From Pinirhizobacter soli (GTDB lineage: Bacteria > Pseudomonadota > Gammaproteobacteria > Xanthomonadales > Rhodanobacteraceae), in assembly GCF_015905305.1 (NCBI RefSeq), contig NZ_JADZLQ010000003.1:678201-742200 (forward strand): 64,000 nucleotides of DNA, given 5' to 3'. The stretch's first letter is position 1. Each line of letters starts with the position of its first letter. The position numbers were made by a program, and so were the translations under genes. This document shows positions 18,962 through 24,176 of this stretch, piece by piece. The notes under the pieces were generated by a model, which was given only the letters and a program-made list of their open reading frames with translations, was not told the DNA's origin and did not search any database.

Positions 18962-19931
18962 CGCTAATTGACGGCTCAGGGAGTGGGTCGTGTACCACCA
19001 GTGAGGGCTCGCCGGGTTGCACCACTGCACGCGCGACCGACGGCCCCGATTCATAGAGGCCACCGCGCGCGCCAGCGTAGCCGCAACTCCAGGCGGCCAA
19101 CTGCTGGGCGTTGCTTAAGATGCGCTCCAGTGCGGAAATCGACCCCCATTGCGACCTCATTTGCTCCAACAGCCCGATCAGGATACCGGAGGTCAACCAG
19201 TCGCCCGCTCCACATGTATCCACGACGCGAGACGCGCTCACCGCGTCCATCGACTGCCAGCGTGCTATCTGCTGCTTGGGCCAACGCCACTGTAATCCTC
19301 GAGCTCCTTGGGTACGGATCTCCAGGTAATCCCCTTTCGTCAGCCACGCCAATGCAGACGCTCGCTCTGCCGAGTATTTGACCATGTCAGCCATGGCCAA
19401 CATAGCGCCTGTCCAAGGTTCGTCCGCGGAGTCCGATGGCTCGTAGACTACGAACGCGCCATGTTTTTTGGCTATGTCGGCCATTGTCATGATTTCATCG
19501 GATAGACGATCGGCAAAAAAAACATCGATCACGCGTGACGCAGTTGACCAACCGGAAGCCAGCACCTCTTGCGCGCGTCGATAGCGGGGCAGGGCTCGCC
19601 CGCAGGACGGGCAGTCGAATAGGAACCGATGTTCGGCGCACTTGGCTAGCTCTTCCACAATCACCGGAACAGCCGCGCGATGAACCCCGTGGTACTGAAC
19701 GCCGCAAAGCTGAAGGTCATCGCGCATCAACGTGTAAGCGAGCGAATCATCCGAGGGGCCGGCCAGTTCCGCGGGCCAACCCAACGCTCCCAAAATGGCT
19801 GCTACGTTGCCCGCCGTCCCCCCAGCCCGAAAGCTGATGCGCTCTGGTGTGTCTGTGATGCGCAACACGTCGAGCGCTACTAAACCAGCAGCAAAGAAAC
19901 GCGGGGCGCTCAGGTTGTAGGGGCGGTGCAT
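18936..19931 (-). CDS. PfkB-family carbohydrate/ribose kinase, ribokinase-like.
   Basis: An N-terminal GG-type motif (RAGGTAGNVA) and the C-terminal PfkB signature DTCGAGDWLTSG are present, in a 331-aa ORF. Confidence 0.7.
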   Translation of the reverse strand: MHRPYNLSAPRFFAAGLVALDVLRITDTPERISFRAGGTAGNVAAILGALGWPAELAGPSDDSLAYTLMRDDLQLCGVQYHGVHRAAVPVIVEELAKCAEHRFLFDCPSCGRALPRYRRAQEVLASGWSTASRVIDVFFADRLSDEIMTMADIAKKHGAFVVYEPSDSADEPWTGAMLAMADMVKYSAERASALAWLTKGDYLEIRTQGARGLQWRWPKQQIARWQSMDAVSASRVVDTCGAGDWLTSGILIGLLEQMRSQWGSISALERILSNAQQLAAWSCGYAGARGGLYESGPSVARAVVQPGEPSLVVHDPLPEPSISVSCAACPD

Positions 19932-21049
19932 GACGGTGGCTCGGATGCCGGGCAGAGGGTAGCGTCAGCATACACTTCGCCAAGCACCCAGACGTGAACA
20001 AAGCGCGCCTCGTCGACGACGTCCTTGAAGCCCCCACTAGGTGGCTCGAATCGACGTGCTTCGACGTAAGCCACGGGCAGCTCATGCTCTAGCGCTGCGA
20101 GTAGGGCGCCAATGGCCAGCGCTTTGGAACCGATAGGCGACAGAACTGTTTCCGCTGGCTGACTCGCACGCCGATATACCTCCGCGCGCGAAGTATGGAT
20201 TCGCGACAAGGTGCGATAGAGATCCAGAGGATCATCTTCTGCCGCAAACAGCATTTGTCTGGTATCGATGCGCCAGGTATCCGAAAGTTCGCGACCGAAC
20301 TGATCCAGCAGAATTTCAACGCTTCGCGGATTGCGTGCTGGAAAGGGAAAGACCGGACAAGTCTCAGTGGGATCCAGCTCCTCGAAAAGGATCGTGAAAG
20401 CTCTCTTCTTAGGGTTGGCCAGCTGCGGGATCCAAAGACGCACCGGTGAATCTCCCGGTGAACCCTTTCCCTTAAAGCCCCAAGGGTTCTGATAGTTCTC
20501 CGCATGCTCGGCAACAATGGCGGTTTCCACCTCGGGGCCGCCCGTCGCGGCAACGACATGGAGATTCGGCTGCGGCTTGTCAGTTAGCATTTTGTACAGA
20601 AGACCAACAACGGGGAAGCTGATGCCGATGGATATCGCACTCATATCCACGATGACATCCGTGACCCCGCCCAAGCCATTCTCGTCAAGGACGCGCTTGC
20701 GGATCTCGGTCACAATCCGGTGACCGCCTACGACGGCATGGTCTTCGTCGAAGACCTCAATGTGTATGACTTCGTGGTCGGGAAAGGCGTGGCGTAGTTC
20801 CTCTTCATTCGCCTCAGCGCGGTCCACGAGTACCTGAGCAGGCTCAGGCCGATCTTCCCTGATCAGAATCGCCTTTCGCTTGGCGGCCGTCTGGCTTACA
20901 AGTAGGGCCAGATGCGATGCACGCGGATCAAAGCCCGCTCCGGCGATATATAGGACTGACCGGCCGGGCTGTTCGAGTAGGCTTGAAAAAAAAGTATTCA
21001 CGTCGGCGCCTCGGTGACTCAGGCCCTCGCGCCATCGCATCTGTTTCAT
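19910..21049 (-). CDS. Hypothetical protein with a weak DprA/SLOG-like Rossmann motif.
   Basis: SVLYIAGAGFDPRASHLALL resembles the DprA nucleotide-binding motif VVSGLAxGVDxAAHxAAL. The genuine DprA in this window (50352-51497) reads VVTSGLADGVDGAAHTAAL. The ORF is 379 aa and shares a 4-bp overlap with the upstream NTPase gene. Confidence 0.4.
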   Translation of the reverse strand: MKQMRWREGLSHRGADVNTFFSSLLEQPGRSVLYIAGAGFDPRASHLALLVSQTAAKRKAILIREDRPEPAQVLVDRAEANEEELRHAFPDHEVIHIEVFDEDHAVVGGHRIVTEIRKRVLDENGLGGVTDVIVDMSAISIGISFPVVGLLYKMLTDKPQPNLHVVAATGGPEVETAIVAEHAENYQNPWGFKGKGSPGDSPVRLWIPQLANPKKRAFTILFEELDPTETCPVFPFPARNPRSVEILLDQFGRELSDTWRIDTRQMLFAAEDDPLDLYRTLSRIHTSRAEVYRRASQPAETVLSPIGSKALAIGALLAALEHELPVAYVEARRFEPPSGGFKDVVDEARFVHVWVLGEVYADATLCPASEPPSCTAPTT

Positions 21050-22983: not shown

Positions 22984-22988
22984 GATGA

Positions 22989-24176
22989 TTACTTCGTGTG
23001 ACGTTGGCGACGATAGAAGAGAGGGTGCATTTCATGCGGGCCCGCTTCGTCGTCGGATTCAGCCCAAACCAAGGCAACGGTGTTGTTCGGCGTATTGTGG
23101 TCGAGTACCAATGGCAACGCACAGCCCGCGTATCCCATGCCCAAATGTTCGACGCCTCCTTTCCTGGTTGCGTCTGTCTCAATTCTAGGGTCGTAGTACT
23201 TCCCGGTGAGTGCGAAGAAATCTGGATCTGCCTCTGGTGTTAGAGGAAAATTCGAGGGAAGACGGTAACTCCAAGTCACTTCGAAGTTAGCGAACCACGG
23301 ATATAGATCTTTCATCTCCTCTTTAACTAAGCTCAATGCCTTTTTCAGATGCTCGACGGCCATATCGGTAACGATCAAATGGTGGATGACTAACGTCCAG
23401 TCCTTAGACTGAAAGTTCAATTTCAATTCATCATTAGCGCGACCAAGCGACCGCAGGAACCGAAGGAGCTTACCCTTCCAGACCGATTTTCCTTCTTCCT
23501 CCTCGGTGCGAATGAAAGAAGTTCCGGATCCAGCGAAGTCATCCACGAGATAGATCGTGTCGAAAGTTGGCTCTTGTTCGGAATTTAGTTTGACGAGACT
23601 TTTTTGAAGCTCTTTGCGCAAGTCCTGCCACTTCTCAGCGTCCAACTGAGTGCCAACTACGACCTGCTCATTGGAGATTCGCCCAACGTTGACGTGTCGG
23701 AAAGAATCAAGGCGTGCACCGTCGCTCAAGCCGAGAAATAGGGTGCGTTGTCGCGCCACATCAAGCTGGTGCTTTGCCTTAGGATCAGTGTAGACCTGCC
23801 ATGGCGCGATTCCTCTGGTCATCGCAACATTCTTGAGCAGCCTCGGCAGCACTGTCTGCGGATACATGATCTCGACGAGCCGCTCTCGCTCCACCGTACT
23901 TATGAACACGAGACGATTGCGGACGAACTCATAGGCCGCAGGCCTATCCTTCGATTCGAACTGCAAGAGCCAACCCACGAGGCTCTCAAGAAAGCGCATG
24001 CCCGCTTGGAAGTCGCGATAACCATCGTACTTGACGGCAGAAATAAGTCGAAGCCATTGATGCTCCTCTTGAGACTTGTTCAAGTCCCACTCCATGACGG
24101 CGCTCAGCATTCGCAAAGCCGTGTTCTCGTTCATCTCATCCTCCCCTGAAACGAAGCATTCCTCCGACCGCATCAA
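22989..24176 (-). CDS. Phosphoribosyltransferase-like protein carrying a type-I PRTase PRPP-binding motif.
   Basis: DTIYLVDDFAGSGTSF fits the hhhhDDxxxxGxT PRPP-binding signature. The ORF is 395 aa. An alternative start at M15 (about 24134) would abut the stop of the upstream gene. Confidence 0.5.
   Translation of the reverse strand: MMRSEECFVSGEDEMNENTALRMLSAVMEWDLNKSQEEHQWLRLISAVKYDGYRDFQAGMRFLESLVGWLLQFESKDRPAAYEFVRNRLVFISTVERERLVEIMYPQTVLPRLLKNVAMTRGIAPWQVYTDPKAKHQLDVARQRTLFLGLSDGARLDSFRHVNVGRISNEQVVVGTQLDAEKWQDLRKELQKSLVKLNSEQEPTFDTIYLVDDFAGSGTSFIRTEEEEGKSVWKGKLLRFLRSLGRANDELKLNFQSKDWTLVIHHLIVTDMAVEHLKKALSLVKEEMKDLYPWFANFEVTWSYRLPSNFPLTPEADPDFFALTGKYYDPRIETDATRKGGVEHLGMGYAGCALPLVLDHNTPNNTVALVWAESDDEAGPHEMHPLFYRRQRHTK

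Follow-up and report, generated by a model that had tools for sequence, protein, structure and literature searches.

To our knowledge, retrons and ShosTA are the only systems with known phosphoribosyltransferase (PRTase) effectors, and nearly all known CARF sensors respond to cyclic oligoadenylates produced by Cas10- or CD-NTase-type cyclases. Here, we describe an operon from Pinirhizobacter soli, located within a stretch of 64,000 nucleotides (contig NZ_JADZLQ010000003.1, positions 678,201 to 742,200; hereafter, the window), that unites a stand-alone double CARF protein, a retron-type PRTase, a STAND/ORC-like switch, and two sugar-phosphate enzymes in a cyclase-free mobile cassette spread over about nine phyla. 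With evenly balanced confidence, we favor the reading that this operon is a self-contained, horizontally mobile conflict system, probably directed against phages or plasmids and of the abortive-infection type, that acts on ribose-phosphate and nucleotide metabolism. The roles assigned to individual proteins are weaker than this overall reading.

The closest characterized family to the PRTase of the operon is that of the type III-A retrons. Upon activation, the PRTase of Retron-Eco11 depletes phosphoribosyl pyrophosphate (PRPP), resulting in abortive infection, and the motif Gx14PNNxP has been reported as specific to retron PRTases (PMC12746101). In ShosTA, a PRTase toxin, ShosT, which perturbs purine metabolism, is paired with a DprA-like antitoxin (PMC11961720, PMC12961424). 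Metabolic effectors under CARF control are exemplified by Chp, a CARF-HAD phosphatase that depletes ATP and inosine monophosphate (PMC12715507). By analogy, the operon described here would function most nearly as a cross between PRTase effectors of the retron-III-A/ShosT type and CARF-gated metabolic effectors, of which Chp is an example; it belongs to none of the retron III-A, ShosTA, or Chp-type systems. Its five genes are as follows.

24136-26034, minus strand: gene 1, fusion of a putative SIS-like module and a HAD-IIB (Cof-type) sugar-phosphate phosphatase, 632 amino acids (aa)
22989-24134, minus strand: gene 2, PRTase-CE family phosphoribosyltransferase-like protein, predicted effector, 381 aa
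21046-22983, minus strand: gene 3, ORC/Cdc6–STAND-type AAA+ ATPase, predicted sensor or switch, 645 aa
19910-21049, minus strand: gene 4, stand-alone tandem-CARF protein, predicted small-molecule sensor, 379 aa
18936-19931, minus strand: gene 5, PfkB-family (ribokinase-like) kinase with a family-specific four-cysteine insert, 331 aa

Gene boundaries and domain identities

The PRTase ATG lies 1 nucleotide (nt) past the stop codon of the SIS-HAD gene (TGA-G-ATG), the ATPase and CARF genes share a 4-bp overlap (ATGA), and the CARF and PfkB genes overlap by 22 nt. A first-pass annotation, made by a model from the letters of this DNA, had proposed a core of three minus-strand genes joined by 4-bp overlaps. 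All three open reading frames (ORFs) were found, and such an overlap exists between the ATPase and CARF genes, whereas the PRTase and ATPase genes are separated by a 5-nt spacer (TAA, 5 nt, ATG). The motifs quoted for these proteins were recovered on the minus strand, namely, IYLVDDFAGSGTSF at 23514-23555 in the PRTase, the Walker A motif GTGKTT at 22810-22827 and the Walker B motif MIDDAHW at 22255-22275 in the ATPase, and YIAGAGFDPRASHLALL at 20900-20950 in the CARF protein; the DprA motif used for comparison lies at 50796-50843 on the plus strand. The PRTase gene had been delimited as 22989-24176, and this ORF is present (395 aa from a TTG at 24176), but translation most likely starts at the ATG at 24134, yielding 381 aa, since this codon is preceded by a Shine-Dalgarno sequence (GGGGAGGA), since it lies directly past the upstream stop codon, and since the homologs are about 378 aa long. 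Likewise, we place the SIS-HAD start at the ATG at 26034 (632 aa) and consider the 734-aa ORF from the TTG at 26340 to be over-extended, because all orthologs (23/23) align from M103 and because AGGGAA precedes the ATG.

Judging by its motifs and profile matches, gene 2 encodes a PRTase-fold protein of a conflict-associated clade, as the first-pass annotation had proposed. The protein matches Pfam family PF24390 (PRTase-CE) with an E value of 8.9e-15 and 55.7 bits against a gathering cutoff of 27, residues 69-389 of the 395-aa ORF covering profile positions 4-253 of 253, and its only PADLOC matches at E ≤ 0.1 are the retron PRTase_III-A models (E = 1e-12 to 4e-4). Among 24 orthologs, the PRPP loop reads YL(I/V)DDFxG(S/T)GTS, with D198, D199, G204, and T205 invariant; it thus contains the acidic pair and the Gly/Thr-rich turn of a type I PRTase loop. 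G334-x14-P349-N350-N351 is invariant in the same sequences, the N-terminal helical region is conserved, and the C-terminal tail, MRPLFRRRQRH, is essentially invariant. The family comprises 730 clusters, and the top 150 representatives are all stand-alone proteins of about 370 aa, with no domain fusions among them; an apparent PRTase–ATPase fusion ORF at one locus (L011) was rejected as an out-of-frame stop-free extension.

The type I loop with its acidic pair is thus common to the operon and the retron III-A PRTases, and Gx14PNN reproduces most of the motif specific to the latter. In contrast to the retron enzymes, the operon PRTase has PNNxV (V or A at the final position) rather than PNNxP, and instead of a C-terminal winged helix-turn-helix domain it has the N-terminal helical region and the basic tail. 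Neither the operon nor the 25 commonest families among 140 immediate neighbors include a reverse transcriptase (a noncoding RNA was not searched for), and the partners of the PRTase here are the AAA+ ATPase and the CARF, SIS-HAD, and PfkB proteins.

The product of gene 4 had been read as a DprA/SLOG-like protein, which our data do not bear out. It matches, over the full length of both models, the PADLOC CARF6 models PDLC01916 (E = 9.8e-85) and PDLC01910 (E = 2.2e-75), and its family profile misses the DprA chains in the PDB. The protein consists of two Rossmann-like CARF domains and carries no effector domain. A fold search identified the Rossmann-like CARF fold with a dimeric or pseudo-dimeric ligand site, and the conserved loops AGAGFDPR, DxSxxSxG, and SPxGSK are compatible with the predicted ligand site, though no proof of one. 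Neither the sequence nor the family profile retrieved anything relevant among all PDB chains; since the sequence searches of the PDB came back empty for both proteins, a fold search was needed for the CARF protein, and the PRTase fold is supported by hidden Markov models (HMMs) only. Compared with Can1 (tandem CARF), Chp, and Cad1, the CARF effectors ancillary to type III CRISPR systems, the operon CARF protein lacks a fused effector, and the HAD domain of the operon, unlike that of Chp, is fused to a SIS-like module on a protein separate from the CARF protein. Furthermore, no CRISPR-Cas system, Cas10, CD-NTase, or mCpol is encoded in the operon, and none recurs among the sampled flanking genes. 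Its CARF ligand may be something other than a cyclic oligoadenylate.

The claim of a large P-loop NTPase was upheld for gene 3, whose Walker A and Walker B motifs are both intact. The protein matches the Pfam family PF24389 (ORC-CDC6-like) and has an ORC/Cdc6–STAND fold likened to that of the ORC/Cdc6, STAND (Avs5), MuB, and TnsC switch ATPases, with a winged-helix-like C-terminal region; the family profile retrieved only P-loop matches among PDB sequences. ATPases of the ORC/Cdc6–STAND group are the usual sensors or switches in conflict systems, dependent on nucleoside triphosphates (NTPs). The coupling of CARF to an AAA+ ATPase with a DNA-binding-type C terminus recalls RtcR, realized here as two translationally coupled genes. 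However, the operon ATPase is of the ORC/Cdc6–STAND type and not a sigma-54 activator, the CARF domain is duplicated and on a separate polypeptide, and the genes under control differ.

With respect to the two remaining enzymes, the SIS-HAD protein matches Pfam Hydrolase_3 (E = 7.8e-12, 45.9 bits, cutoff 20.9) and the NCBIfam HAD-IIB model, and its family profile retrieves HAD-IIB sugar phosphatases from the PDB. The HAD motifs D488xD490GT, ATGRG, K648, and GDxxxxGND (734-aa numbering) are invariant, and so is the GSGGS motif of the N-terminal half. The PfkB kinase matches Pfam PfkB (E = 7.8e-12, 45.6 bits, cutoff 25.8), with invariant GGTxGN and DTCGAGDW motifs (catalytic D244). Two cysteine pairs, C107/C110 in an inserted HRFxWxCPxCG and C326/C329 in a C-terminal CPACP, are conserved across the kinases of the operon; they suggest a zinc ribbon, which is atypical of ribokinase-family enzymes and might serve as an interaction or regulatory element. 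In none of the four enzymes do the motifs vary within the family, so all activities are under selection. A PRTase/HAD module of the Ter system, associated with resistance to phages and plasmids, was reportedly proposed by Anantharaman, Iyer, and Aravind in 2012 to make a nucleotide or nucleoside-like molecule from PRPP; PMC5512222 mentions this module. That system, like the operon, combines PRTases and a phosphatase in a phage- and plasmid-resistance context; by its description, it is set apart by other families and partners (TerD and ATP-grasp, among others) and by the lack of CARF and of an ORC-like ATPase.

RefSeq annotates the operon as a HAD hydrolase, three hypothetical proteins, and a PfkB kinase, and NCBIfam holds no model for the PRTase, ATPase, or CARF proteins. 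No publication describing the operon or experiments on it was found in the literature, our coverage of which was without Makarova et al. 2020, Burroughs et al. 2015, and Burroughs & Aravind 2020; it is not mentioned in Kaur 2020, the CoCoNuT preprint, the BREX preprint, the domain-centric screen, or the NAD-ADPr survey. The component families are already catalogued, as PRTase-CE and ORC-CDC6-like in Pfam (consecutive accessions) and as CARF6 in PADLOC, and an earlier comparative-genomic mention of the operon is plausible for that reason. The term "undescribed," as used in the first-pass annotation, thus suits the system, for which we found no named system, paper, or RefSeq product name, but not its families.

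Conservation, variants, and mobility

A scan with the CARF-family alignment, using one genome per species, yielded 115 loci, the best 80 of which were kept. All 80 of these have the ATPase, CARF, and PfkB genes, 78 have the PRTase gene, and 75 have the SIS-HAD gene, nearly without exception in the order SIS-HAD, PRTase, ATPase, CARF, PfkB. Several of the loci that lack a SIS-HAD or PRTase match are truncated by the end of a contig; at three others (L007, L008, and L011), the upstream flank is complete, so that the gene may have been lost or disrupted. With regard to the suggested check of gene-neighborhood conservation, the five genes, the trio among them, are colinear in 75 to 80 of 80 loci. 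The PRTase-ATPase-CARF order is invariant, and the SIS-HAD, PfkB, and NADAR genes (NADAR is described below) shift position around it. The trio is therefore a fixed core, accompanied by two or three small-molecule enzymes that are obligatory but positionally free; what had been taken for a three-gene unit is indeed the invariant center, but the unit as a whole comprises five genes.

The hosts belong to about nine phyla and include Alpha-, Beta-, and Gammaproteobacteria, Acidobacteriota, Planctomycetota, Binatia, Actinomycetota, Spirochaetia, Rhodothermales, Poribacteria, and Entotheonella, and the operon proteins match their colinear orthologs from distant phyla with E values of 1e-70 to 1e-120, far beyond chance. 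Gene content is kept even where the sequences have diverged widely. On a Sulfitobacter plasmid (L082), the CARF protein is only 25% identical and the five-gene order is the same; on Paenarthrobacter pTC2 (CARF 28% identical), the five genes are kept in the order PRTase, ATPase, CARF, SIS-HAD, PfkB. On Burkholderia gladioli plasmid bgla_2p (CARF 26% identical), the order is NADAR, SIS-HAD, PRTase, ATPase, CARF, without PfkB, and in Bryobacterales the PfkB gene has moved to the front of the operon. Four proteins (SIS-HAD, PRTase, ATPase, and CARF) have identical E values in a Hyphomonas and an Algiphilus metagenome-assembled genome (MAG), which suggests near-identical proteins in the two. The ATPase or PRTase gene is split into at least two ORFs, or carries an insertion of about 1 to 2 kb (L065, L067), at L003, L008, L046, L047, L065, L067, L073, and L077, mostly long-read MAGs; sequencing error and real inactivation of toxic genes both stand as explanations.

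The operon is carried on 18 plasmid records, 9 of which are typed as conjugative, and the Sulfitobacter insertion has relaxase/coupling-protein genes on one side and the virB operon on the other. The flanks are essentially unique to each locus, 516 ORFs at the 80 loci falling into 423 clusters. Among the 140 immediate neighbors (the two nearest genes on each side at 35 loci, searched with Pfam and PADLOC), the recurrent families are transposases, type IV secretion system coupling proteins, relaxases, resolvases, integrases, AbiEi/AbiEii, GajA/Old-like ATPases, mad3, and HEC-01. On Agrobacterium plasmid pAtA74a_b (L081), a TniQ/TniB/transposase set (1-2519), similar in kind to the one on the left of the island in the window, directly adjoins the five-gene operon. 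The operon may travel as cargo of Tn5053/Tn7-like transposons.

Two further genes lie downstream of the operon in the window.

18007-18528, minus strand: NADAR-family N-glycosidase/ADP-ribose-base hydrolase, facultative accessory gene, 173 aa
18590-18961, plus strand: small antisense ORF between the PfkB and NADAR genes, 123 aa

The NADAR protein matches Pfam NADAR (E = 1.3e-26) and PADLOC PDC-M42C (E = 3.6e-8), as well as the NCBIfam model "NADAR family anti-phage protein," with an E value of 7e-17 that is below the cutoff of that model. The gene adjoins the operon in 9 of 80 loci. We rejected it as a sixth core gene, given this frequency, the antisense ORF that intervenes in the window, and an operonic arrangement in a single plasmid variant. 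This variant is the B. gladioli plasmid (L084, 3412-10173), in which NADAR is the first gene, overlapping the start of SIS-HAD, and PfkB is absent; this suggests that NADAR and PfkB may be alternative ways of handling one ribosyl product. The antisense ORF is divergent from NADAR and shares 26 nt with the 3' end of the PfkB gene. At the protein level, it is conserved better than the alternative frame (67% identity in L001 and L002, 40% in L003 and L005) and has no Pfam or PADLOC match; it is possibly a small regulator of the NADAR module.

Proposed mechanism and competing readings

A defense role, which the first-pass annotation had named as the most economical hypothesis, is supported by our analysis. 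Our data show mobility, strict colinearity, the content of the operon, the identity of its domains, and the integrity of its catalytic motifs; the immune role, the division into sensor, gate, and effector, and each step of the chemistry are inferred, as follows. The ORC/Cdc6–STAND-like ATPase would act as an NTP-dependent sensor or switch, possibly binding DNA via its winged-helix-like C-terminal region. The double-CARF protein, translationally coupled to it, would gate the system by binding, in a composite pocket like that of Can1, a small molecule that contains ribose phosphate. The PRTase-CE enzyme would be the effector, consuming PRPP and starving nucleotide synthesis as the retron type III-A PRTases do, while synthesis, recycling, or destruction of the CARF ligand would fall to the SIS-HAD phosphatase and the PfkB kinase. 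Alternatively or additionally, kinase, phosphatase, and PRTase may form an ATP- and PRPP-burning cycle that extends the drain. Where present, NADAR may serve as an optional eraser, an accessory N-glycosidase by which a ribosyl-base product or a signal is cleared. These proposals draw on the depletion of PRPP by retron PRTases, the toxicity of ShosT, the gating of a metabolic effector by CARF in Chp, and the usual role of ORC/Cdc6–STAND ATPases as switches. If the operon is indeed a defense system, it offers a route to a new CARF ligand and to the enzymes that make or remove such a ligand, as well as a further example of immunity by metabolic starvation of PRPP and nucleotide pools.

Several observations weigh against this reading. 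No classical killing domain (nuclease, pore, protease, TIR, or SIR2) is found in the operon proteins, four of which have ordinary metabolic enzyme folds, and four of the five are not covered by any system or candidate-system model of PADLOC v2. The use of PRPP by gene 2 is suggested by the motif and HMM matches only, because neither its sequence nor its family profile matches any classical PRTase chain in the PDB, the family being too divergent. The matches to SIS are likewise weak (NagB-II, E = 1.6e-3; family profile against PDB entries 2aml, E = 0.014, and 7kqa, E = 4.9e-4), so that the N-terminal half of gene 1 is SIS-like only by weak resemblance, and what SIS-HAD and PfkB would do is guesswork. 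Our survey of the flanks is of a qualitative kind and comprises no formal enrichment test. Finally, neither the operon nor any other ORF of the island encodes a nucleotide cyclase in the window, and the flanking genes of the survey include no recurrent one. Systems based on cyclic oligonucleotides (type III CRISPR ancillary systems, CBASS, and Panoptes) have a linked cyclase (Cas10, CD-NTase, mCpol, or DAC), and this operon does not. The missing cyclase and the missing conserved flank partner are together its most unusual feature, and they imply that the CARF ligand is either derived from the host or invader or made by the operon's own enzymes.

The same metabolic folds lend themselves to a rather unlikely alternative outside immunity, in which the PRTase, PfkB, and SIS-HAD enzymes make or salvage an unusual nucleoside or ribose derivative, such as a nucleoside-type natural product or signal, or serve in repair, and CARF and ATPase form a split RtcR-like regulator responding to a ligand. 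In favor of such a cassette are the intact active sites in four standard small-molecule enzymes, the lack of a nuclease, pore, or NADase domain and of a PADLOC system model, and the CARF–AAA+–helix-turn-helix architecture of RtcR, the controller of an RNA-repair operon. Moreover, the kinase and SIS parts match best, though weakly, to enzymes of sugar and amino-sugar pathways (FrlD-like kinase, ribose-1-phosphate kinase, and NagB-II), and the downstream neighbors on Agrobacterium plasmid L081 include a nucleoside 2-deoxyribosyltransferase and a MATE exporter. However, the nearest characterized relatives of the PRTase are toxic retron effectors rather than biosynthetic PRTases, and the flanks show no recurrent gene for a transporter, a substrate-binding protein, or another pathway step. 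A conflict role is a better fit to the sparse and patchy distribution, to the location in islands, transposons, and conjugative plasmids, to the proximity of AbiE, Gabija-like, and PDC systems, and to the association with NADAR, a defense-linked family. If the operon were nonetheless a regulated metabolic cassette, it would show CARF domains at work outside immunity, as in RtcR.

A more specific version of the favored conflict-system reading is quite unlikely in our estimation. Here, the pathway would be cyclase-free: once activated by the ATPase, a mini-pathway of PRTase, PfkB, and SIS-HAD (phosphatase/isomerase) would build a noncanonical messenger from PRPP, namely, a phosphoribosylated base or nucleotide, to be read by the Can1-like double CARF and erased by NADAR, and the same enzymes would cycle futilely, burning ATP and PRPP and arresting the infected cell. 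If true, the CARF ligand would be of a chemically new class, and immune messengers would be made by a new route.

The frequent occurrence on plasmids, including the position between relaxase/coupling-protein genes and virB in Sulfitobacter, would also suit a counter-defense or pool-restoration module of plasmids and integrative and conjugative elements, whose enzymes would rebuild nucleotides, NAD-like cofactors, or PRPP-derived metabolites depleted by host immunity (compare phage NARP) and whose CARF protein would sense or sponge host immune nucleotides. The enzymes are of the salvage type, NADAR processes ADP-ribose adducts, and phage NAD+ reconstitution pathways use PRPS-like and PRTase-like enzymes. 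We consider this reading very unlikely, as a search of 50,697 phage records with the PRTase came back empty and only 2 of 2.9 million viral contigs match the CARF protein, a large STAND/ORC-like switch ATPase is typical of defense sensors and not of salvage pathways, and the PRTase clade is that of toxic retron effectors.

The first-pass annotation itself had modeled the locus as a ShosTA-like toxin-antitoxin pair, with a PRTase toxin neutralized by a DprA/SLOG-like antitoxin and an ATPase inserted between them, and this is hardly tenable: a PRTase-fold protein able to perturb nucleotide metabolism and a Rossmann-like nucleotide-binding partner are both present, tightly linked, and in a mobile defense context, so that the analogy of a PRTase effector with a Rossmannoid partner holds, but every test of family membership failed, as neither protein has a sequence or profile relation to ShosT or ShosA (no PADLOC match at E ≤ 0.1, and no ShosT, ShosA, or DprA chain in the PDB found by either family profile), the partner is a tandem CARF instead of a DNA-binding DprA, and a two-component model gives no account of two extra enzymes conserved as strictly as the trio. 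The proposed Pfam and PADLOC searches accordingly matched PRTase-CE, ORC-CDC6-like, and CARF6 but no ShosT or ShosA. Because of this lack of relation and the equal conservation of SIS-HAD and PfkB, we describe the locus as a five-gene operon and not as ShosTA with an added ATPase.

Genomic island and neighboring genes

The mobile-island setting noted in the first-pass annotation is evident from low GC content, a tRNA at the edge, and mobile-element neighbors. The GC content is 0.557 at 8200-29700, compared with 0.685 and 0.65 in the flanks, and the right edge of the island is marked by a tRNA-Met gene at 29704-29779; no second copy of the tRNA-Met 3' end, as an att-type repeat, occurs within the window. 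Scans of the locus for promoters and terminators gave results at or below shuffle expectation and were uninformative.

Just upstream of the operon and beside the tRNA-Met gene lies PDC-M18A/B, a PADLOC candidate defense system, with overlapping minus-strand genes for PDC-M18A (28328-29353; E = 4e-106) and the membrane protein PDC-M18B (27819-28328; E = 1.8e-66). Between this pair and the operon, a gene at 26270-27532 on the minus strand encodes a 420-aa multi-pass membrane protein, which has no Pfam, PADLOC, or NCBIfam match and is separated from gene 1 by a 235-nt gap. Both PDC-M18A/B and the membrane protein were considered and rejected as parts of the operon, as no homolog is present in any of the 80 related loci; for the same reason, PDC-M18 is an independent neighboring system.

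Just outside the tRNA-Met gene, an ORF at 29782-30111 on the plus strand begins with a signal-peptide-like N terminus followed by a histidine-rich repeat (HHPVHHVPPHRVVHHRVVHHRVVHHPVH), and it may encode a periplasmic metal-binding peptide or be spurious. On the left of the island, transposon-type genes at 8771-12181 on the plus strand encode a Mu-transposase C-terminal-domain fragment, TniB, and TniQ. These are followed at 14402-17768, on the minus strand, by tandem ParB/RepB-like genes (303 and 298 aa) and then a large serine recombinase of 521 aa, which together are probably the integration and maintenance module of the island.

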